From contig PKTF01000131.1 in NCBI GenBank assembly GCA_002869275.1, positions 4,892-68,891 on the forward strand: DNA of 64,000 bases, read 5' to 3'. Positions 36,659-47,154 of the stretch are shown piece by piece; the stretch's first letter is position 1, and each line of letters begins with the position of its first letter. Both the position numbers and the translations under genes were made by a program. Source of the DNA: Ignavibacteria bacterium (lineage in GTDB: Bacteria; Bacteroidota; Ignavibacteria; SZUA-365). The notes beneath the pieces are model-generated. The model searched no databases. It had not been told where the DNA came from and saw only the letters and a program-made list of their open reading frames with translations.

Positions 36659-38395
36659 TTGAGCGCTGAACTCTCCATACATCAGCTTCAGATCGCAGAC
36701 ACGGAGTTCATCGTCTGTGACGTCGAAACCACGGGACTGAGTCCGGACCGTAACCGCCTGACAGAAATCGCGCTGCTGCGTATGCGTGGAAATCAGGTTG
36801 TCGAGCGTTTCGACTCGCTGGTGAATCCCCGGCAGTTCATCCCACCTGAAGTACAGCGACTCACCGGCATTTCCAACGAAATGGTGTACACGGCACCTGA
36901 CGTCGAAGAAGTGATGCCGAAGGTGAAGGACTTCATTGGCGAGGCGGTGTTCGTGGGGCACAACGTACGCTTCGACAGGTCGTTCGTGGACGCGACGCTG
37001 GCACGCTGCTGCATGAAGGCACTGCAGGGACCAAGTCTCTGTACTGCGCGTCTCGCCCGCCGTCTCATACCGAACAAGGGGAAGAAGAACCTCGGTGCTA
37101 TTGCACGTCATTTCAACATCCGCATCCGCGGACGCCATCGCGCAACGGGGGATGCCGAGGCGACAGCGCGCATCCTGACACATTTCCTCACCATTCTCGA
37201 AGAGGAATTCGATATCCACGAAGCGGGGGAGCTGCTCAGTTTCCAGAACCGACAGATCTATCGCATCACCGGCGCCCCAAAATACTTCACGCGTCTGCAG
37301 AGCAATCTTTCAGAACTGCCACACGCCGCTGGTGTCTACTTCTTTCACGATAAACGTGGCGACATTCTGTACATCGGAAAGGCGCGCGATCTGAAGGAGC
37401 GCGTGTCATCATATTTTTACCACAACATCGGCCATACCGAGAAAATCAGGCGGCTTGTCCGCGGTGTGCATGGCATCACCTGGAAAACGACGGAGACGGA
37501 GCTCTCGGCACTGCTCACGGAATCGCGTCTGATCAAGCAGCATCAGCCGTCATACAACACGCAGCTCAAACGCTACCGCAAATACCCTTTCATTCGCATC
37601 GATATGCAGGACGACTGGCCCACCATCGGCTGGTGCTACGATCTTGTGGACGACGGTGCTGAATACTTCGGGCCTTTCCGGTCACGTTTTGCGGTCGAGG
37701 AGGCGCTCGACGGCATCAACAAACTGTTCATGCTTCGTGAATGTGAAGGCACACTCCACCCTGATCCGAAGAACACTCCCTGCCTCTATCACGATATCAA
37801 GCGCTGTGGTGCGCCATGTGCCGCACTCACCAGCGGTGAAGAATACCGGCGTGAAGTCGATGACATCGTTCTGTTTCTGCAGGGTGAGCAAGACAGTGTG
37901 CTGGACCGGCTGCGTCTGCGCATGGAGAAGAGAGCGGAGCAGCTCTACTTTGAGGGCGCTGCTGTTCTGCGCGATCGCATAGAAGCCGTGGAAAAAATCA
38001 TTCGCCAGCAGCAGCTGATGGTCCATTCGGTTCGTCGGCAGAATCTGGTCATCATCACACTGGCCCGTCGCAGCAACGTAGAAGTTCACCTGATCAAGGC
38101 CGGCATGCTTGCAGCGCAGTTCCTTGTGGACCAAAAAGGTTTCTCCCGTGATCAGCTGTTCAGAAGTCTCGAGGACGTGTTTTCCTCACGGCAGGCGGAA
38201 CTGTTCACCGGCCGACAGGAAGACATCGATGAAATGCGCATTATCGCCAGCTGGTGTCTGAACCGCCGTGCCGATTCCCGAATCCTTGACGTGCTTGACG
38301 ACGTGACGATAGAGGAGCTCACAGGCGTGGTTTCGGATGCCATCCTGCACCAGGATGAGGAATTACACACCGGTCAGGCGATGAACGAACAATAA
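36659..38395 (+). CDS. DnaQ-family 3'-5' exonuclease fused to a GIY-YIG (UvrC/Cho-like) nuclease domain
   Basis: Exo I FIVCDVETTGL, Exo II FVGHNVRFDRSF, Exo III HRATGDAEAT. Then GIY-YIG: GVYFFHDKRGDILYIGKARDLKERVSSYF ... and a UvrC-like region. Confidence 0.8.
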   Translation: MSAELSIHQLQIADTEFIVCDVETTGLSPDRNRLTEIALLRMRGNQVVERFDSLVNPRQFIPPEVQRLTGISNEMVYTAPDVEEVMPKVKDFIGEAVFVGHNVRFDRSFVDATLARCCMKALQGPSLCTARLARRLIPNKGKKNLGAIARHFNIRIRGRHRATGDAEATARILTHFLTILEEEFDIHEAGELLSFQNRQIYRITGAPKYFTRLQSNLSELPHAAGVYFFHDKRGDILYIGKARDLKERVSSYFYHNIGHTEKIRRLVRGVHGITWKTTETELSALLTESRLIKQHQPSYNTQLKRYRKYPFIRIDMQDDWPTIGWCYDLVDDGAEYFGPFRSRFAVEEALDGINKLFMLRECEGTLHPDPKNTPCLYHDIKRCGAPCAALTSGEEYRREVDDIVLFLQGEQDSVLDRLRLRMEKRAEQLYFEGAAVLRDRIEAVEKIIRQQQLMVHSVRRQNLVIITLARRSNVEVHLIKAGMLAAQFLVDQKGFSRDQLFRSLEDVFSSRQAELFTGRQEDIDEMRIIASWCLNRRADSRILDVLDDVTIEELTGVVSDAILHQDEELHTGQAMNEQ

Positions 38396-38421
38396 AAAAG
38401 GGAGGCCGGACCGGCCTCCCA
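38395..38421 (-). terminator. Rho-independent terminator for the minus-strand Omp85-like gene
   Basis: GGGAGGCCGG a CCGGCCTCCC hairpin; on the minus strand it is followed by TTTTTT (AAAAAA at 38395-38400 on plus). Confidence 0.65.
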
Positions 38422-38446
38422 ACAATTGTCGATACGCTTTCCGCGT

Positions 38447-40054
38447 TTAAAAGGGGCGAGAGAATCGCAGGACAAGGCTGGGGGATTCGGAGCGGTCGAG
38501 GCGCCATGCCGCACCGATACGGAAGTTTCCGTCTTCACTGCCCAGCGCAACACCGATATCACTTTTCCAGTTATTGAATACTGCGTCGTCGGTCATCGCA
38601 ACATCGAGTGCGCCGTTCGTCACGTCTCGTGCGGTGAGCGGCATCGCTCCGTTGGTCGATCCGGCGTTGGCGAAGAAGATGATGTTCGTGCTGCGGAGTA
38701 CATTCTTTGCCCAGCCGCGGGCTTCATGGACCAGAGTACTGCGGATGATGAGTTCTGCACTGAGAAGCATTACGTGGCTGCCCGCGAATTCCTTGTAACG
38801 GTAGCCAGGCAGGGTACCTGGTCCGCCGAGCTCGAACGCGCGCTGCTGCGGAATGAGTCCGTCACTGAAGCCGCCCCTGAACCGAGTATTGAAATTGAAA
38901 TGCGAACCCAGCGGCTGATACCGGCGAATATCGGCAATCAACTGTGTGAATTCGAAGTCGCCGGCGGCAAACCCACCTGCCATTTCGTACTGCAGCTGTG
39001 CCTCCCAGCCATCCGTCCTGGTGTCGAGACTGGCAAGAGTGGTGAGCCCGGCAGACAGCACGACACTGTTCACGTTGCCGTCGTTGATGTGCGGGTTCGG
39101 ACGGAAGACCTTGTCTCCACCGAAGATCGACCAGTTGGTGGCACGATTCATATTCCCGTAGGTATCGTGTACGTAGGCCGCACTTGCACGGATGTTCAGT
39201 TCGTCCTCTCCGCGATAGTACCACGCCGCCGTGACATTGAAGCCGCGGCGCTCGAAATAGTCGAGGAAATCTTCACGCGCAAGGATAGATGTGATGGTGT
39301 TTTCGTCACGATCGAACGACCACTGATCTTTGGAGTCGGTAAAGCTGTAGCCCTCACCGCTGATCTCGATGATCATATCCTTGAGGTAGAAGGGGATGCC
39401 GAGGCCCAGGCTGTAGCGCCAGGTGTGGTTCGCGAAGCCGTACCCCAGTGAGGCGGTGCTCACGATACGCGGTTTACTGTGCCAGTACAGGCGCTTCGGT
39501 TGCGCGAAACCGAGGTAGAGTCCCTCGACGCGATTATACCTGAGAAAGGATTCCTGCAGGCGCGTGGTGACGGGGAACATCCACGGGAAATTCCCGGGAT
39601 ACTTCTTGAAAAAGTTTTCCTCGAAATTGAATTGGTCTCCTTCAGTGTCATCACTCTGCCACCATGACCATTCGTCATCTTCTTCTTCCCAGCCTTCTTC
39701 CCATTGTTCCCATTCCTCTTCGTCATCCGCCCATTCATCTCCACCGGCGGCAGAGGGATTCACCTGATACTCGAGTGCTTCGAGACGCGCCTCCGCTTTC
39801 GAGATGCGCTGTTCGAGCGTTTCGATTGTACTCTGCTTTTCAGCGTCCGATACGTCACTGTTTTTCAGACGTGTCATTTCCGCTTTGAGGCGGTCCAGCT
39901 CTTCGGTCAGTTTTTTCTGTTCAAGTTGAATTTTCTCGAGTGCTCGCAGACTGTCATCCATGACGGGATCAGTCTGGCTCCAGGCGTATTGCGAGAACAC
40001 GGGGAGGGCGAGCATCAGGATGAGGCATATGCGTAATGTGGCACCAGCTTTCAT
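38447..40054 (-). CDS. Omp85/BamA-like outer-membrane barrel protein with N-terminal coiled coil and acidic Trp-rich segment
   Basis: Signal peptide. Coiled-coil heptads (LEKIQLEQKKLTEELDRLKAEMTRLK ... EARLEALEYQV). Acidic Trp-rich run EWADDEEEWEQWEEGWEEEDDEWSWWQSDD. C-terminal barrel with the RAFELGGPGTLPGYRY motif and terminal Phe. Confidence 0.6.
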   Translation of the reverse strand: MKAGATLRICLILMLALPVFSQYAWSQTDPVMDDSLRALEKIQLEQKKLTEELDRLKAEMTRLKNSDVSDAEKQSTIETLEQRISKAEARLEALEYQVNPSAAGGDEWADDEEEWEQWEEGWEEEDDEWSWWQSDDTEGDQFNFEENFFKKYPGNFPWMFPVTTRLQESFLRYNRVEGLYLGFAQPKRLYWHSKPRIVSTASLGYGFANHTWRYSLGLGIPFYLKDMIIEISGEGYSFTDSKDQWSFDRDENTITSILAREDFLDYFERRGFNVTAAWYYRGEDELNIRASAAYVHDTYGNMNRATNWSIFGGDKVFRPNPHINDGNVNSVVLSAGLTTLASLDTRTDGWEAQLQYEMAGGFAAGDFEFTQLIADIRRYQPLGSHFNFNTRFRGGFSDGLIPQQRAFELGGPGTLPGYRYKEFAGSHVMLLSAELIIRSTLVHEARGWAKNVLRSTNIIFFANAGSTNGAMPLTARDVTNGALDVAMTDDAVFNNWKSDIGVALGSEDGNFRIGAAWRLDRSESPSLVLRFSRPF

Positions 40055-40130
40055 GAAATACTCTCGAACAAATTGATAAATGAACTAAGCTCGTATACGC
40101 AGAAGAGGCGAAAATGTTCGCTGGATAGCG

Positions 40131-40163
40131 GAAAAAGAAGAGGGGCAGCAACTGCCCCTCTTC
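40131..40163 (-). terminator. Rho-independent terminator after the paralogous secreted-protein pair (minus strand)
   Basis: Perfect 12-bp stem GAAGAGGGGCAG caa CTGCCCCTCTTC; the minus strand reads hairpin then TTTTTC. Confidence 0.7.
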
Positions 40164-40179
40164 GGTCCAATATGCTGAT

Positions 40180-40989
40180 TCAGGGCATGAGGGTGATCTT
40201 CCGGACGGAATTCTCCGTCACGGGCACGCGCATGTTGTTGGACGGGAACATGTACACCTGGTCGGTGTTGATCTCGGCTTCCATGTTGACGAGAACCCCG
40301 TTCTCCACTGCGAGATAGGCTTTCGCCTTCACTTCGATCGTCCCGGAAATCATCATCTCATTGTCGCCGCGAACGAGCTTTCCTTCCAGATCACTCTCTG
40401 TGGTGATCGTCACTTCATAGCTCTGGATGCCTTCGACTTCCTTCTCGCCAGTGACGGCGTAGGAACGTTCGTACTCGATAATGGTCTGACTTTCACCCGA
40501 TCCGCTCGTATCTACACCGTTGACTTCCCAGCTGGATCCGGTGGAGAGCTGATCCTTCTCAATTGTGGGGAAGAAATTGAGCATGCTGCGAAGGATACCT
40601 GCAGATTCGTCGTCGTACGCGTTGATCGACGTATCGACGTCGATGACATCTCCCTTGTGGTCGATTTCGAACTGGACGCTTTTTCCGCCGACGTCGGCTC
40701 CACGGGTCTGTGATCCTTCCGGGGTTTCGGCGATGATCAATGCGTTGTTCACCGTCAACTGCAGCCGCTGGTGGCCGTTCTCCAGCGGTTCAATGGAAGT
40801 GAGAACCGTGCTGATGGTTGTCTCGGAATTGATACTGATGCTCCGTCCCTGGACTTCCTGGATTCGCATGCTTGTTCCTTCGACCAGGTAATTGTATTCC
40901 TGTCCCTGGTCATAGCGGTATGTCGCTTCCTGTGCGCTGAGTCCTGCAGCGATGAGTAACAGTACAATCGTGGTAATGGTTGTACGCAT
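40180..40989 (-). CDS. Hypothetical secreted protein, distant paralog of the upstream gene
   Basis: Signal peptide MRTTITTIVLLLIAAGLSAQ. Shares a diverged C-terminal module with the upstream protein (S-x-WE..., EY-x-R-x-Y-x-V-x-GE-x-x-V-x-G, ...ISGT...ENG-x-LV). Confidence 0.5.
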   Translation of the reverse strand: MRTTITTIVLLLIAAGLSAQEATYRYDQGQEYNYLVEGTSMRIQEVQGRSISINSETTISTVLTSIEPLENGHQRLQLTVNNALIIAETPEGSQTRGADVGGKSVQFEIDHKGDVIDVDTSINAYDDESAGILRSMLNFFPTIEKDQLSTGSSWEVNGVDTSGSGESQTIIEYERSYAVTGEKEVEGIQSYEVTITTESDLEGKLVRGDNEMMISGTIEVKAKAYLAVENGVLVNMEAEINTDQVYMFPSNNMRVPVTENSVRKITLMP

Positions 40990-41007
40990 TAAATTCTCCG
41001 GTTGTCG

Positions 41008-41907
41008 TTATTGAGAAATACGTTCCAATGTCGTTTTTGTGCTGACGGATGTCGGGATGACACTTGTCTGCGCGCCGAAGACGGCCCGCATCGATTCACG
41101 GCTCGTCGTGACGTCTACTTTTACCGGCAGGGCGTTTTCCTTGGCGATGTACATTTCGCCGGTACTGATGGTTTCATCTTCGGTGTATTCTTCGAGACGA
41201 TCGAATAGAATCTGTTCTTCCATCGTCGTTATGCTTTCCCATCTGATCCACCAGCACTCTGTTCCGTCCACAGTCTCTTCGCCGGCGACCGTGTATTCGG
41301 TGCTTCCAGCCAGATAGCGGATCCCGCGGCCCTTTCCGAACTGGGGGAGAGTCTTGTTCGGCTGCAGTGTGTCTGCGCGCGAATCTTTCCAGCTCATCCC
41401 GAGCGCGATCGGTCGGTCAGGGAGAACAGGCAGGATGGCGGCCCGCTGAGCGAATATCGCATCGGTGGCCCCGGGGCCCAGCAACTTCTCAGCCTCGAGC
41501 GGTTTCAGGGGCTGTGTTGCCTCGACACGGCCTTCAGTGGATTGTCGCACCTGTACAGGCTTTCGCGTCAGAAGATTCTGCATCAGTCGATTCTGACGTT
41601 GGATGCGCGGATCCTCGCTGTTTTCGTCTACAATCGCGGTATCCTGTACCGTGATGTAGGTGATGGCGTCCGCGGTTGTGTTCTCTGCGGTGATCGTGAA
41701 ATAGCGCGTCACCTGTCGGTCGATTTCCGTACTGCGACCGTCATTGCTCTGCGCAAGTGCGCTGGTTTGCTCGACCTGCTTGTATTTGAGAGCGAGGCCT
41801 GTGGGCAAATCGTACTTCAGCAGCACCGACTGGGCGCTGACAGTGACAGACGTGATCAGGAAACACACGGGAAGAATAAAGGAGAGTCTCATCAGCCTCG
41901 CAACCAT
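41008..41907 (-). CDS. Hypothetical secreted protein, distant paralog of the downstream gene
   Basis: The track ORF starts at 41997; the signal peptide begins at MVARLMRLSFILPVCFLITSVTVSAQS (ATG at 41907; alternative start 41892). C-terminal block TEYTVAGEETVDGTECWWIRW...ISTGEMYIAKENALPV aligns with the 40180-40989 protein. Confidence 0.5.
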   Translation of the reverse strand: MVARLMRLSFILPVCFLITSVTVSAQSVLLKYDLPTGLALKYKQVEQTSALAQSNDGRSTEIDRQVTRYFTITAENTTADAITYITVQDTAIVDENSEDPRIQRQNRLMQNLLTRKPVQVRQSTEGRVEATQPLKPLEAEKLLGPGATDAIFAQRAAILPVLPDRPIALGMSWKDSRADTLQPNKTLPQFGKGRGIRYLAGSTEYTVAGEETVDGTECWWIRWESITTMEEQILFDRLEEYTEDETISTGEMYIAKENALPVKVDVTTSRESMRAVFGAQTSVIPTSVSTKTTLERISQ

Positions 41908-42061
41908 ACTGAATACAATCGAACAACCTCTAAAATACGAAAGAAAGATCTGCTGACACAGGGAGAAATGCAGCACTGCGGACGGAGGCGCGTCCATGCT
42001 CTTTCTTACAGCATCCGGCCATGAAATGTTTCACGTAATCCGCTGAAATGCCTCGGTAATC

Positions 42062-43789
42062 CTATTCAGCCGTGTATATCAGCTCACCGCCGTGCCAGGT
42101 CTCACGCACCGTTGTCTCGAGAAATTCCTCCTCCGGCACTGTGAGGAGGTCTCGCGAGAGGATGACAAAATCGGCCCAGCTCCTCTCGGAGAGGACACCG
42201 ACGGAGGTTTGCATACCGGCTGCCTGTGCCGCCCAACTGGTAAACGCACGTACGGCATGTTCACGAGACATGCGCTGCGAGCCGTACCATCCTTCCGACC
42301 AGCGGTCGCGTTCTTCCGGATGTAACGGATCCACCTGAAAATGCTCCTCGATGTCTTTCGCAGAGGCCGGACGGCCCAGCGCGTCCTTTCGAAAGGCCGC
42401 CGCATGAATTCCCGCCAGGGGATCGGGGCGTTCGACGGGGAAATCGCTGCCTCCCGGGATATACGTGCCTGTGCCGATGAGTCGGGCCCAGGCGTAGGCA
42501 TTTCGTACGCGAATCGCTCCGAGACGTGCCTCCGCCCAGTACATGTCGCTCGTACAATGCGTCGGCTGCATGGAAGGAAGCACTCCGAGTGCGGCGAAGC
42601 GGGGAATATCGATATCCGAAATCACTTGCGCATGTTCCACGCGCAGAGGATAGGGTGGAGAAGCGTTCTGTTCGAGGGCCCGGGCATAACCGTTGAGCAC
42701 TCTTCGCACCGCGGCGTCACCGATTGCGTGGACGCAGACCTGCATTCCAGCCTCGACTGCGCGTGCTGCTTCGAAGGCAATAGTGTCTTCGTCAATGATA
42801 GGAATGCCTGAATTCCCGGGATCGTCGCTGTATGGTTCCAGCATCCATGCTCCGCGCGAACCCAGTGCACCATCGGCGTACAGCTTGAGGCCGGCGACCG
42901 TAAGCTGTTGGTTCCCATAGGATTGCCGTCCTGCTTTCAAGTATTGTTCCCAGGTGTCACCGCGACCATCGATGTATGCGACGATGCGAAAGGGAAACTT
43001 TCCTTCATCAATAAGCGAGCGCACGGCTTCGATGTCTTCAGCGTCCATACCCATGTCATGCATTCCTGTCATTCCGACAGCAATGCAGCGATCTATCGCT
43101 GCCTGATAGCCGACTTTCAGTTCCTCCCGGGTGGGAGGGGGAATATGAGCGCGGACCAGTTCGATGGCATTATCGAGGAGAATTCCTGTTGGTGAGCCAT
43201 CTTCAAGGCGGACAATACGTCCTCCTTCGGGATCGGGAGTATCCGCAGTGATGCCGCTGAGCTCGAGCGCGAGGGAGTTCACCCACGCGGCATGACCATC
43301 AATGCGGCTCAGAAACACAGGATGCGCCGTTGTCGCCCTGTCCAGATCATTGTTATTCGGAAAGGTTTTTTCCGGCCAGTCGTTTTGATCCCAGCCTCGT
43401 CCGCGGATCCACTGATTCTGTGCGGTATTCGCGGCGCGCGCGCTCAGCATGCTGATGATTGCTTCCTTGTCCCCGGTGCCGTGCACCGCGAGGATCACGG
43501 CTTCCTCACCCAGGCCGTACAGATGCGCATGCGCATCGATGAGTCCCGGATACACAAATGCTCCCTGGAGATCGATCTGCTCCTCTGCCGACCATGCGGC
43601 GAGGATGGCCTCATCCGAGCCGAGGGCGCAGATGCGTCCCTCACGCACCGCCATGGCGGAATGTATGCTGCTGTACTCATCCATCGATTGGATGGCACCG
43701 TTGAAGAAAATGCGATCGCAATTGTCCTTGGGGGCACACATGGTCATGAAGAATCCCGTTAGTGCGATAATAGTGATATGAATTCTCAT
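42062..43789 (-). CDS. Amidohydrolase-family metallo-dependent hydrolase (YtcJ-like), secreted or lipoprotein
   Basis: PGLIDAHAHL metal-binding HxH, later VHAIGD and a C-terminal D-containing motif typical of the amidohydrolase_3 family; hydrophobic N-terminus. Confidence 0.75.
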   Translation of the reverse strand: MRIHITIIALTGFFMTMCAPKDNCDRIFFNGAIQSMDEYSSIHSAMAVREGRICALGSDEAILAAWSAEEQIDLQGAFVYPGLIDAHAHLYGLGEEAVILAVHGTGDKEAIISMLSARAANTAQNQWIRGRGWDQNDWPEKTFPNNNDLDRATTAHPVFLSRIDGHAAWVNSLALELSGITADTPDPEGGRIVRLEDGSPTGILLDNAIELVRAHIPPPTREELKVGYQAAIDRCIAVGMTGMHDMGMDAEDIEAVRSLIDEGKFPFRIVAYIDGRGDTWEQYLKAGRQSYGNQQLTVAGLKLYADGALGSRGAWMLEPYSDDPGNSGIPIIDEDTIAFEAARAVEAGMQVCVHAIGDAAVRRVLNGYARALEQNASPPYPLRVEHAQVISDIDIPRFAALGVLPSMQPTHCTSDMYWAEARLGAIRVRNAYAWARLIGTGTYIPGGSDFPVERPDPLAGIHAAAFRKDALGRPASAKDIEEHFQVDPLHPEERDRWSEGWYGSQRMSREHAVRAFTSWAAQAAGMQTSVGVLSERSWADFVILSRDLLTVPEEEFLETTVRETWHGGELIYTAE

Positions 43790-43965
43790 GAAATCAAAAA
43801 ATGCTGGTGATGAAGTAACCCAATATACGAAAGCTGTGTCATACTCGTGACGCCCATTTCCCGCATGCGACCTTTTGGCTTGACTCGCCGGTCATATGAC
43901 GCTATTATTGAGTTGATTTACAGTAATGAATCATGACATACATCGTTTGCACCGCAGGTACACTC

Positions 43966-46900
43966 ATGCCTTCATCCTTACGCTTTTCTTTCGTGGTATT
44001 TCTCATTCTGATGCTGCTCGCCCCATTGAGCGGACAGGCGCAGTATTTCGGCAAGAACAAGGTGCAGTACACGGATTTTGAATGGTACTACATTCAATCG
44101 CAGCATTTCGACGTGTATTACTCCAACGACGGGTACGATCTCGCTGCGTTCACGGCCAAGGCTGCTGAGGAAGCCCTTATCAGTATTCAGAAAACACTGA
44201 ATTTTCAGATCAGTGCGCGTATTCCGTTCATCGTCTACAACTCGCACAATGATTTTCAGCAGACCAACGTCGTGGGATCGTATCTGGAAGAAGGCATCGG
44301 TGGAGTGACGGAGCTGTTCAAGAACCGGGTCATCATTCCGTTCGAGGGTAATTACAGCCAGTTTCGGCATGTGATACATCATGAGCTGGTTCACGCCGTC
44401 ATCAACGAGATGTTCTATGGCGGTTCGCTGCAGGCGGCCGTGACCAACCGTATCCAGTTGATACTGCCGCTGTGGATGAATGAGGGACTTGCGGAATATG
44501 AGGCGCTCGGCGGGTGGGATACCGATTCCGACATGTTCATTCGCGATGCCGCGACGAGCAACTACCTGCCTCCGATTCCCTACCTCTACGGCTATTTCGC
44601 ATACCGTGGTGGACAGTCCGTGTGGTGGTACATCTCGCAGACCTACGGTGAACAGAAGGTGGGAGAGGTGATCAACAGCATCCGGTCTTCCCGGGGCATC
44701 GACAAGGGATTGAAGAAGTCCCTCGGTCTGACCCTCGAAGAACTTTCCGAACGCTGGCTGAGAGAGCAGAAACGCATTTATTATCCGGACGTTGCGACGC
44801 GAGAATCTCCGGTGGATTTTGCGAAACGGCTGACCGATCACAAGAAGTCGGGAAGTTTTTACAATACCAGTCCGGCCATTTCGCCCTCGGGCGACCGCGT
44901 GGCTTTCATTTCGAACCGGGATGATTTTTTCTCGGTGTATGTCATGTCAGCGATCGACGGTGGATCGGTTCGCAAGCTGATAGAAGGAACGAATACCAAC
45001 GATTTCGAGGAACTGCATCTGCTGACGCCCGGATTGTCGTGGTCGCCCGATGGAAAGTACATCGCGATTGCTTCGAAGGCCGGTGCCAATGACGCCATCA
45101 GTATCGTGGATGCCGAAAGCGGCGACTATGAGGTGCTGCCGGTATCGAAGGACGGAATATTTTCAGTGCAATGGTCACCCGATGGACGCAGCCTCGCATA
45201 CGTGGGGAATACCGTCGCGCAATCGGACATCTGGGTGTACGACCTGGAAAGCAAGTCCACGGTGAAAATGACAAACGATGTGTTTTCCGACGCTGATCCC
45301 ATATGGTCGCCAGACAGCAAGTCCATCTATTTCACCTCCGACCGCAAGGCGTTCCTCCGTCCCGAAGATATCCCCGAAGGCTTCGATATTTTCGACCATG
45401 ATTATTCTCAGATGGACCTGTATTCCCTGGACGTGGAGTCGGGAGAAATCACCCGGATCACCAATACTCCGAAAGCCAGCGAATCGAATCCCCTCGCAGC
45501 CCGAGATGGAAAGCGTCTCATGTTCATCTCAGACCGGAACGGTATCAAGAACCTGTTCGTGCACGATCTTGAAAGCGGCAGGGAATACCCCATCACCAAT
45601 TCGCTGTCGGGTGTGTACCAGGCATCGATCTCCGCCGATGGAAACAAACTCGTGTTTTCATCCATGTACGAAGCAGGGTTCGACATCTTTCTCATGAAGT
45701 CTCCGTTCGAGGACGAAGCCGTCGTCGATCTGCTGCCGACGCTGTATGTCGAACAGCAACTGGAATCCCTGGAGATGCCGCTACCCGCCGGGGGTGAGCT
45801 TGCCAGTACATCGTCGGTGGGCCTCGACGGTTCGGCGGATCCGACCGAGTCGCTGCAGCACAGCGATGAGGTTGTCGTCCAGCTCGGAGCTCAGGAAACT
45901 GGCGTCGCCGATAGCACCGGCCGGCCATCGAGAACAGGCGACCGTATGCTTTTCGGCAGCGATCTCGGAGGTTCGCGTGAGAACGCCAGAGCGCAGGCTT
46001 TTTCGCTGCAGAACTTCGTCAACGAGGAAGGCGATTTCGTCATCAACAAATACAAGCTGAGCTTCTCGGCGGATCTGGTCTACGGCAACGCAGGGTACAG
46101 TACGTTCTACGGCGTGCTCGGGACGACGCAGATGGCGTTCAGCGACATGCTCGGGAACCATCAGATCCTTTTCCTCACCAACCTGATCGGTGATCTGAAA
46201 AACAGTGATTACGCGCTCGGGTATTATTATCTGCCCGACCGGATTGACTGGGGTATCAACGGCTTCCACAGCGCACGTTTCCTCCTGGCTTACACCGGCG
46301 GACTGTACGAGGACCTCGTGCGATATCGGCAGTTCGGCTTCGGGCTATCCGCAGCGTATCCATTCGACAAGTTCAATCGTATCGAAGGATCGCTGACATG
46401 GATGAGCCTCTCGCAGGAGAATCTCGATCGCCCGGATCTTCCCATCAGTGAATTTTCCGTGATCGTGCCCAACGTGGGGTACGTGCATGACAATACGCTC
46501 TGGGGGATGTGGTCGCCTGTCCGTGGATCGCGCTACGAGATGCGCGCTTTTGGCAGTCCGGGAATCGGCAGCAGGCCGCTTTCGTTTTTCTCCCTGACTT
46601 TCGATTACAGAAAGTACTATAAGTTCTGGGGAGATTTCTCCATCGTTCTGCGCGGTTCTGGCGGCGGCAGTTTCGGACGCAATCCGCAGCGCTTCTTCAT
46701 CGGCGGTACCGAAAACTGGATCAACCGCACGTTCGAAAATGGTCGCATTCCCATCGACAGTGAAGAGGACTTCGCGTTCCTGACAGCGGCGCTGCCGCTG
46801 CGCGGTTATAACTACAACGCGCGTCTTGCAAGCCGTTACGGACTCGGCAACGCTGAGATCCGTTTCCCGGTCGTCAAGTATTTCCTCGGCGGCGTGCTTC

Positions 46901-47154
46901 CATACATCCTGCAGACGGTCAACGGCGCAATCTTCCTCGACGTGGGAACGGCCTTTGACGAAATCGATGCATACCGTGCGTTTACCCGAGATGAAAACGG
47001 TAACCTGATGAACCAGGACCTGCTGATCGGTACCGGTATCGGAGCGAGGATGTGGTTCCTCGGCTTCCCGCTGAAATTCGATGTGGGTTGGTCTTACAAC
47101 GGAGCCGGCTTCTCGACGCCCATCTATTATTTCTCGCTGGGCGCGGATTTCTGA
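43966..47154 (+). CDS. Mosaic outer-membrane protein: HExxH metallopeptidase-like module, PD40/TolB-like beta-propeller repeats, C-terminal Omp85/BamA-like barrel
   Basis: Signal peptide MPSSLRFSFVVFLILMLLAPLSGQAQ; the track ORF starts 33 nt earlier. HVIHHELVHAV zincin motif. Repeated SPDG/SPSGD blocks (SWSPDGKYIAI, QWSPDGRSLAYV, IWSPDSKSIYFTSDR). C-terminal LRGY ... GIGARMWFLGFPLKFDVGW ... SLGADF barrel signature. Confidence 0.65.
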   Translation: MPSSLRFSFVVFLILMLLAPLSGQAQYFGKNKVQYTDFEWYYIQSQHFDVYYSNDGYDLAAFTAKAAEEALISIQKTLNFQISARIPFIVYNSHNDFQQTNVVGSYLEEGIGGVTELFKNRVIIPFEGNYSQFRHVIHHELVHAVINEMFYGGSLQAAVTNRIQLILPLWMNEGLAEYEALGGWDTDSDMFIRDAATSNYLPPIPYLYGYFAYRGGQSVWWYISQTYGEQKVGEVINSIRSSRGIDKGLKKSLGLTLEELSERWLREQKRIYYPDVATRESPVDFAKRLTDHKKSGSFYNTSPAISPSGDRVAFISNRDDFFSVYVMSAIDGGSVRKLIEGTNTNDFEELHLLTPGLSWSPDGKYIAIASKAGANDAISIVDAESGDYEVLPVSKDGIFSVQWSPDGRSLAYVGNTVAQSDIWVYDLESKSTVKMTNDVFSDADPIWSPDSKSIYFTSDRKAFLRPEDIPEGFDIFDHDYSQMDLYSLDVESGEITRITNTPKASESNPLAARDGKRLMFISDRNGIKNLFVHDLESGREYPITNSLSGVYQASISADGNKLVFSSMYEAGFDIFLMKSPFEDEAVVDLLPTLYVEQQLESLEMPLPAGGELASTSSVGLDGSADPTESLQHSDEVVVQLGAQETGVADSTGRPSRTGDRMLFGSDLGGSRENARAQAFSLQNFVNEEGDFVINKYKLSFSADLVYGNAGYSTFYGVLGTTQMAFSDMLGNHQILFLTNLIGDLKNSDYALGYYYLPDRIDWGINGFHSARFLLAYTGGLYEDLVRYRQFGFGLSAAYPFDKFNRIEGSLTWMSLSQENLDRPDLPISEFSVIVPNVGYVHDNTLWGMWSPVRGSRYEMRAFGSPGIGSRPLSFFSLTFDYRKYYKFWGDFSIVLRGSGGGSFGRNPQRFFIGGTENWINRTFENGRIPIDSEEDFAFLTAALPLRGYNYNARLASRYGLGNAEIRFPVVKYFLGGVLPYILQTVNGAIFLDVGTAFDEIDAYRAFTRDENGNLMNQDLLIGTGIGARMWFLGFPLKFDVGWSYNGAGFSTPIYYFSLGADF

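Follow-up and report, generated by a model that had tools for sequence, protein, structure and literature searches.

Why do two small exported proteins have their genes side by side, just ahead of a gene for an outer-membrane barrel of the Omp85 family? The question is raised by a 64,000-nucleotide (nt) stretch of DNA from an Ignavibacteria bacterium (assembly GCA_002869275.1, contig PKTF01000131.1, positions 4,892 to 68,891; hereafter 'the window', the whole stretch analysed, whose own numbering is used throughout), in which two genes on the minus strand, A (41008..41907) and B (40180..40989), encode proteins of 299 and 269 amino acids (aa). A preliminary description, made from the letters alone, had presented them as distant paralogues sharing a C-terminal module, as members of an unannotated family, and as part of an envelope module together with an amidohydrolase gene on one side and the Omp85-like gene on the other.

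Our sequence comparisons place A and B as two divergent branches of the DUF6263 superfamily, both scoring below the threshold of its Pfam model (PF19777). The pair is a duplicated, diverged and differently placed branch of a catalogued family, and not a new kind of system. We hold the statements on identity and fold made below with high confidence. On function, the reading that we prefer as a whole is that A and B are non-catalytic binding or adaptor partners of exported metallohydrolases, a proposal that we regard as evenly poised between right and wrong.

Paralogy and family membership of A and B

A and B are full-length paralogues whose N-terminal halves have merely diverged further than the rest. 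BLASTP aligns residues 11–265 of A with residues 5–237 of B at 21% identity (E = 4e-5, about 260 columns), and the Smith–Waterman score of the mature proteins (z = 7.0) is reached by none of 1,000 shuffles. The C-terminal similarity reported in the preliminary description is significant taken by itself (z = 5.8 for the C-terminal halves, with 1 of 1,000 shuffles reaching the score; E = 5e-11 when their profiles are compared with hhalign), and BLASTP aligns the same stretches. Its accompanying statement that the N-terminal halves are unrelated fails: beyond the near full-length BLASTP alignment, the N-terminal halves give z = 2.35 (31 of 1,000 shuffles) and their profiles align weakly but in register (E = 0.0014, 95 columns), against E = 0.25 and 0.42 for the crossed comparisons of N-terminal with C-terminal halves that served as controls. 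Ortholog alignments built for genes A (11 sequences; A1) and B (7 sequences; A2) match each other with 98.5% probability in hhalign (E = 1.8e-15, 239 columns), and comparison without the signal peptides retains E = 1.9e-12 over 217 columns. No internal repeat was found in A when its N-terminal half was compared with its C-terminal half by hhalign (E = 0.076). Furthermore, the AlphaFold models of the two proteins have their strands and helices in an identical order. Full-length paralogy is settled by the end-to-end alignment of each protein with the canonical DUF6263 family.

That family emerged from profile searches. A word-indexed protein search turned up 12 unnamed relatives for A and 6 for B, and a rerun with a 50-sequence alignment added little. 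An exhaustive profile search with a combined A and B alignment, covering 1.84 billion cluster representatives (clusters at 50% identity), returned 738 clusters at E <= 1e-3, 293 at E <= 1e-10 and 44 at E <= 1e-30. Nearly all of the 150 superfamily matches listed are about 260–315 aa long. When the matches listed were scored with separate A and B profiles, they resolved into A orthologs, B orthologs and a large third group, hereafter the canonical group, whose members are about 277–285 aa long and score equally with the two profiles (50–98 bits). PF19777 (DUF6263) is matched by 18 of 50 sampled superfamily members, with a best E of 3e-10 (one member, P0071, is listed with PF19777), and neither A nor B matches it even at E <= 1 (gathering score 26.7 bits). 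An alignment of the canonical group (A5) is matched over 269 columns with 99.9% probability by the alignments of both A (E = 6.9e-33) and B (E = 6e-34).

The claim that the family is unannotated therefore stands in part. Neither protein has an above-threshold match in Pfam or NCBIfam, where only sub-threshold, chance-level matches appeared (DUF6925 for A; the two-partner secretion (TPS) domain and adhes_NPXG for B), but both are remote members of a catalogued family. Several other searches were negative: no PADLOC or PHROGs model, which would have indicated an anti-phage or phage identity, gave a match at E <= 0.01; a sequence search of the PDB with the family profile gave one chance-level match (E = 0.14); an Rfam search of 37500..44500 gave nothing; and no paper in the literature library that was searched mentions DUF6263 or PF19777. 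With the catalogued family A and B have in common a length of about 270–300 aa, a signal peptide ending in Q and a single-domain layout. They differ from it in forming two separate ortholog groups retained as a tandem pair, and in that the M28 and M24 peptidase genes flanking canonical members are replaced in the window by the amidohydrolase and Omp85 genes. For the window the result is modest: a DUF6263-like paralogue pair can now be named where two 'hypothetical proteins' stood.

Tandem duplication has also occurred independently elsewhere in the superfamily. In one locus (L057:111-2583), an M28 gene is followed by two canonical-type copies and then by an M24 gene, and an Armatimonadota contig (GCA_041890195.1; L018:6051-7897) carries two adjacent distant members, with no peptidase or Omp85 gene among the neighbours called there.

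Both proteins are predicted to be exported, as the preliminary description had it. Each begins with a type-I signal peptide consisting of a basic N-terminus, a hydrophobic core and a cleavage site, VSA|Q in A (signal peptide residues 1–25) and LSA|Q in B (residues 1–19). The start of gene A at 41907 corresponds to Met31 of a longer open reading frame (ORF) that opens at 41997, the gene ends at 41008, and in our ortholog alignment it coincides with the start of all orthologs. The public record of this protein ('MAG: hypothetical protein C0600_05505 [Ignavibacteria bacterium]') is 329 aa long; its additional 30 codons occupy 41908..41997 on the minus strand, ahead of the signal peptide. Because all orthologs begin at the 41907 position and the extra residues precede the signal peptide, the annotated start of C0600_05505 was probably called 30 codons too early.

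Cleavage would leave an N-terminal Gln on both proteins (41830..41835 in A and 40930..40935 in B, minus strand), and 124 of 161 family members have [ASG]Q at the expected cleavage place. The pattern agrees with the Bacteroidetes Q-rule, in which the exposed Gln is capped as pyroglutamate and for which Ignavibacterium album has a Q-value of 77% (PMC5837995). Such a cap would shield the family proteins from the aminopeptidases encoded beside many of them.

Predicted fold and solubility

The AlphaFold models of A (predicted local distance difference test (pLDDT) 87.0, predicted template-modelling score (pTM) 0.78) and B (pLDDT 86.4, pTM 0.79) both predict a single-domain antiparallel barrel of 11–12 strands, arranged around short hydrophobic helices. 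Three long N-terminal strands are followed by a middle region of about 55 residues, modelled as two short strands with two or three short helices, and then by six long C-terminal strands, with turns of 2–5 residues. Examples of the hydrophobic internal helices are AGILRSMLNFFP in B and DAIFAQRAAILPVLP in A.

The solved shapes nearest to these models are the N-terminal barrels of large lipid transfer proteins, with paired fold-comparison scores of 13.2 and 16.4 for lipovitellin (1LSH), 12.7 and 15.1 for vitellogenin (9ENR), 11.4 and 15.5 for ApoB-100 (9BD1), and 11.7 and 13.4 for MTP (8EOJ). The likeness is one of fold, seen in predicted models only: identity is no higher than 8–13%, A and B have no match to the Vitellogenin_N Pfam family, and there is no relationship at the level of sequence. 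In addition, whereas the eukaryotic barrel is one domain of proteins of 800–4500 residues, A and B are stand-alone bacterial proteins. In vitellogenin, ApoB and MTP, the N-terminal barrel is not the lipid cavity, so lipid binding by A and B is not to be inferred from the resemblance.

Because outer-membrane proteins appeared among the structural matches, we asked whether the family could be a membrane barrel. A Foldseek search of the PDB returned porins, at an uninformative template-modelling score of about 0.2. A C-terminal aromatic residue, the hallmark of the outer-membrane beta-signal, is present in only 1 of 161 family members; A ends in ...ERISQ and B in ...ITLMP. Phe, Trp and Tyr together make up 6–7% of residues in the family, compared with 13.6% in the Omp85 barrel of the window and 18.4% in the C-terminal domain of a protease encoded nearby, both of which end in F. 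The low aromatic content and missing beta-signal, together with the strongly acidic character of mature B (net charge -23), the hydrophobic internal helices and the short turns at both barrel ends, suggest soluble barrels whose interior is hydrophobic and filled.

Gene neighbourhoods and a candidate role

The wider family is encoded among exported peptidases. A metagenome scan with the single peptide pattern TGQQNMT[IM] yielded 58 canonical loci, whose family proteins are 32–100% identical to the query. Counting only loci with at least 450 nt of flank on the side concerned, 31 of 34 have an M28 aminopeptidase homologue as the immediate upstream neighbour on the same strand, and 22 of 41 have a homologue of AMP_N/M24 (aminopeptidase P) as the immediate downstream neighbour, again on the same strand. 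Individual canonical members illustrate how close these genes can be: a Peptidase_M28 gene lies 35 nt upstream in L022, an AMP_N gene 34 nt downstream in L021, and loci L023–L025 have the order M28 (with a PA domain), DUF6263 and AMP_N/Peptidase_M24, the two gaps in L023 measuring 13 nt and 1 nt. Signal peptides on the M28 and M24 proteins, several of them with a lipobox-like Cys, indicate that these enzymes act outside the cytoplasm. No Omp85 gene was found beside canonical members in loci L018–L083, and no Amidohydro_3 homologue was detected in the 58 canonical loci. For the wider family, it is the link to exported peptidases that is informative, rather than one to Omp85.

Other downstream arrangements exist. 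In one sublineage (L073:982-3547, L069:3639-4427), the M24 gene is replaced by genes for a protein with CHU_C, a type IX secretion signal, and for PorP/SprF, and in L035 the family gene is followed by one for a protein with a CarboxypepD_reg domain. The downstream side of the family is, in view of these three loci, not tied to aminopeptidase P alone.

The neighbourhood of the A/B clade is different, and it too is conserved. We compared 17 loci from genomes and metagenomes (L001–L017), in which A is 45–70% identical, together with more distant ones. A and B are adjacent in 17 of 17 and again in L084–L088, so that the paralogous tandem pair proposed in the preliminary description is kept well outside the source genome. 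The Omp85 gene follows B wherever the locus is long enough to tell (16 of 17), A is preceded by an Amidohydro_3 gene in 14 of 17 and in L084–L088, and a Peptidase_MA/PD40 gene is found divergently upstream in 12 of 17. The three loci that lack the upstream amidohydrolase (L005, L006 and L015) encode the same protein and represent one lineage, in which both flanks have been replaced around an intact A–B–Omp85 core. The distant A orthologs of L085–L088 stand in the same five-gene block as in the window. Synteny in the clade also continues outwards into housekeeping genes, with asd on one side and uvrC-like, ABC ATPase, pdxA and GWxTD genes on the other.

The two kinds of neighbourhood meet in a single metagenomic locus, L084:3-7596 (JGI 3300005096, Ga0072503_117581). 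On one strand it carries, in order, Amidohydro_3, M28, an A-like gene (297 aa), a B-like gene (270 aa), AMP_N/M24 (462 aa) and Omp85/DUF5686 (635 aa), and it therefore joins the Amidohydro_3–A–B–Omp85 context of the window to the canonical M28–DUF6263–M24 operon. The simplest reading of these gene orders is that the cluster in the window is an L084-type arrangement that would have lost or relocated both aminopeptidase genes. Co-occurrence with Omp85 among relatives, which the preliminary description had suggested examining, is conserved within the A/B clade and was not found in the canonical loci. The adjacency is specific to this clade and, because it lies within the longer syntenic block, gives a functional link with Omp85 moderate support only.

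Within the clade, the pair itself looks like a transcription unit of its own. The spacer between A and B is exactly 18 nt (40990..41007, minus strand), as previously described, with a GGAG (40999..40996) 6 nt ahead of the start codon of B that would give this gene its own ribosome-binding site, and the spacing is 17–19 nt in the called genes of orthologous loci L001, L002, L003 and L005, which suggests co-translation. The strong terminator reported after the pair is also present: an intrinsic-terminator-like element at 40130..40163 (minus strand) consists of a hairpin (40163..40137) with a 12-base-pair stem, 8 G–C pairs and a 3-nt loop, followed by TTTTT, and begins 17 nt past the stop codon of B, ahead of the Omp85 gene. 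Of 15 orthologous loci, 8 (L001, L002, L003, L005, L008, L011, L012 and L013) have a comparable hairpin and T-run no more than about 30 nt past the B stop codon, with unrelated stem sequences, so termination or a stable 3' end after A–B is itself conserved. The flanking gaps measure 154 nt between the amidohydrolase and A, and 125 nt, holding the terminator, between B and the Omp85 gene.

We prefer the reading in which A and B are accessory partners of exported metallohydrolases because of the linkage of the family to M28 and M24, the gene order of L084 and the Amidohydro_3 gene upstream of A. An old tandem duplication within the DUF6263 superfamily would have given rise to A and B, and a bicistronic message would supply them in matched amounts as soluble periplasmic proteins. 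The conserved 17–19-nt spacing, the terminator after B in 8 of 15 loci and the independent duplications in L057 and L018 argue that the two probably work jointly, as a pair or a heterodimer. They would dock or organize hydrolases, or hold peptide substrates, either in the periplasm or on the inner side of the outer membrane. Candidate partners in the window are the adjacent Amidohydro_3 enzyme and possibly the Peptidase_MA/propeller protease, which may be anchored by a barrel; in the wider family they would be the exported M28 aminopeptidase and the exported aminopeptidase P. A proline in the next position generally stops M28 aminopeptidases, and it is just this obstacle that aminopeptidase P takes away, so a protein whose gene lies between theirs would be in a good position to link the two activities. 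'Envelope module', the earlier label, is fair; the evidence is better described by 'extracytoplasmic hydrolase or peptide-degradation module'.

Several observations weigh against this proposal. No M28 or M24 homologue was found anywhere in the 64-kb window, so the partner of A and B there, if any, can only be guessed. The invariant or nearly invariant positions of the family (Y32, Y42, G57, G126, G170, W173, D179, C218 and G259) are mostly structural, being Gly, Trp and Tyr with one Asp and one Cys, and offer no evident binding site. For want of any conserved cluster of His, Cys or Asp among them, we also discarded the idea that the family supplies metal, as a metallochaperone, to the binuclear hydrolases. 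The 58 canonical loci were recovered with one peptide pattern and may over-represent one lineage. The 154-nt and 125-nt gaps, with the terminator belonging to the pair, mean that A–B is not strictly co-transcribed with either neighbour, and part of the A/B adjacency may be inherited order, given a synteny that extends to housekeeping genes.

A more elaborate version of the adaptor proposal can be drawn for the window. As a matter of speculation, the Omp85-family protein, which lacks a detectable POTRA domain and has a coiled coil next to an acidic segment rich in Trp, could provide an anchor at the outer membrane, and the Peptidase_MA/Tricorn-like protease could serve as an upstream endopeptidase. 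A heterodimeric A/B adaptor would then dock exported metallohydrolases, the amidohydrolase in the window and M28 and aminopeptidase P in relatives, on the N-terminus of the POTRA-less Omp85 protein and, with the protease, make up an outer-membrane-tethered 'peptidasome'. We think this full assembly rather unlikely. If it were true, DUF6263 would be the first bacterial family on a barrel fold that elsewhere forms the N-terminal domain of vitellogenin, ApoB and MTP in eukaryotes, and an Omp85 protein devoid of POTRA domains would act as an anchor instead of an insertase.

Of the alternatives to an accessory role, the one that survives best, unlikely as it is, makes A and B cognate inhibitors, or 'safety catches', of the co-encoded exported hydrolases that protect periplasmic proteins. 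Small co-operonic barrel inhibitors of secreted bacterial peptidases are known, among them the potempins, the staphostatins and Inh/AprI, and family members are likewise small exported barrels encoded tightly beside exported peptidases. The faster evolution of the pair also agrees with an inhibitor, ortholog identities being 45–54% for A and 37–48% for B against 56–89% for the Omp85 protein, the amidohydrolase and the protease. However, a single protein encoded between two unrelated exopeptidases fits this explanation poorly.

It is rather improbable that A and B are LolA-like carriers with a hydrophobic cavity in which a lipid, a lipopeptide or the acyl anchor of the lipoprotein hydrolases next door would cross the periplasm. 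The preliminary description had proposed a LolA-like or lipocalin-like fold, and a barrel is indeed in the right structural neighbourhood; but proteins of the LolA fold (LolA, LolA3, RseB/MucB, LppX/LprF, LmcA and BDI_3050) score below the closed barrels in structural comparison, A and B are larger than they are, and there is no lol context. The LolA, LolB and LppX Pfam families gave no match to A or B at E <= 1.

We give little credence to a client or partner relationship of A and B with the downstream Omp85 protein, whether they are exported to the surface through it, as in two-partner secretion, or act as its periplasmic accessory factors. A–B–Omp85 stay together in all orthologous loci that are long enough, including those with changed flanks (L001, L003 and L005), and residues 206–245 of B show sub-threshold similarity to the TPS domain and to TIGR01901. 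These scores fall short of their cut-offs (16.8 against 33.5 bits for PF05860 and 23.5 against 29.1 bits for TIGR01901), they concern about 40 residues of barrel strand, and A has no such match. Moreover, A and B are predicted to be barrels rather than beta-helices, the Omp85 protein has no POTRA domain and scores 15.9 bits against a cut-off of 22.7 for ShlB (PF03865), the Omp85 gene is set off from B by a terminator, an M24 gene intervenes between them in L084, and no Omp85 gene was found beside the canonical members in loci L018–L083. As for two-partner secretion proper (TpsA/TpsB), the locus resembles it in that genes for exported proteins adjoin an Omp85-family gene and in the weak TPS-motif match of B; we rejected it, as every defining feature tested fails, namely the TPS domain, POTRA, ShlB, the beta-helix and, with a terminator lying between them, the arrangement of the genes.

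The neighbourhood may instead carry no functional message, A and B being periplasmic proteins of a function unconnected with their neighbours, whose position is inherited gene order. The synteny of the clade as far as the asd, uvrC-like, ABC ATPase, pdxA and GWxTD genes, and the terminator and gaps that set A–B apart, are what such an explanation would expect. We consider it very unlikely, since the M28–DUF6263–M24 order recurs, with 1–13-nt junctions, in members only 32–45% identical to the query, L084 unites both contexts, and A–B–Omp85 survives at least three flank rearrangements. Finally, the idea of A and B as 12-strand channels integral to the outer membrane, for peptides for example, assembled by Omp85 and feeding periplasmic peptidases, is highly improbable in view of the missing beta-signal, an aromatic content half that of the outer-membrane barrels of the window, the charge of B, the short turns and hydrophobic helices, and best fold matches that are soluble barrels.

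For DUF6263, the accessory-partner proposal comes with several handles: a predicted fold, a near-constant M28/M24 partner set, and a diverged A/B branch with an amidohydrolase and an Omp85 protein. It offers a testable hypothesis for extracytoplasmic peptide breakdown in Bacteroidota and Ignavibacteria-like bacteria, and suggests what a class of Omp85 proteins without POTRA domains might do.

Neighbouring genes in the window

Both neighbours named in the preliminary description were confirmed by domain matches and are conserved. The amidohydrolase gene (42062..43789, minus strand), which ends 154 nt upstream of A, encodes a 575-aa Amidohydro_3 metallohydrolase (PF07969, 380.9 bits). Its N-terminal signal peptide contains a Cys at position 18, and the protein is possibly a lipoprotein.

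The Omp85-family gene (38447..40054, minus strand) encodes an outer-membrane barrel protein of 535 aa, of which residues 237–505 match PF01103 with 50.7 bits against a cut-off of 24; the protein ends in ...RFSRPF and has a weak match to DUF5686. No POTRA domain was detected with Pfam, and residues 26–120 give only coiled-coil-type matches. The protein begins with a signal peptide, and the N-terminal part that comes after it (residues about 30–140, approximately 39635..39965 on the minus strand) consists of a coiled coil followed by an acidic, Trp-rich segment of low complexity, GGDEWADDEEEWEQWEEGWEEEDDEWSWW. Of 6 aligned orthologs, 5 share the EWSWW motif and the coiled coil; the ortholog in L084, longer by 100 residues, has a bactofilin-like insert in their place. 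Identity with BamA or TamA was rejected on the TIGR03303 score (21.5 bits against a cut-off of 297) and the lack of POTRA matches. Neither this protein nor the C-terminal domain of the protease described below (1073 aa) gave anything useful in sequence searches of the PDB. A class of Omp85 proteins without POTRA domains, 'noNterm', has been described, with a possible role in membrane protein biogenesis (Heinz and Lithgow 2014, PMC4104836), and POTRA-less Omp85 proteins have also been described in Leptospira (PMC11358297). The protein in the window resembles the noNterm class in having an Omp85 barrel and no detectable POTRA domain, and differs from it in its N-terminus of about 130 residues with the coiled coil and the acidic Trp-rich segment.

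Divergent from the amidohydrolase, a gene on the plus strand (43933..47154) encodes an exported protein of 1073 aa with a Peptidase_MA_2 domain, PD40/Tricorn-type propellers and an aromatic-rich C-terminal domain; its orthologs match Tricorn_N and Tricorn_2nd. The C-terminal domain, of about 380 aa (approximately 46012..47151), has no Pfam match, contains 18.4% Phe, Trp and Tyr, and ends in ...SLGADF. A weak similarity was seen by hhalign between this domain and the part of the Omp85 barrel with the GG...PGY.Y motif (E = 0.002, 98 columns). The protein is probably a protease fused to an outer-membrane barrel, possibly one of the Omp85 type.

On the other side, an ORF of 578 aa (36659..38395, plus strand) converges on the Omp85 gene, a position that is kept across the clade. 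RNase_T exonuclease, GIY-YIG and UvrC_M domains were identified in its orthologs from loci L002, L085 and L086.

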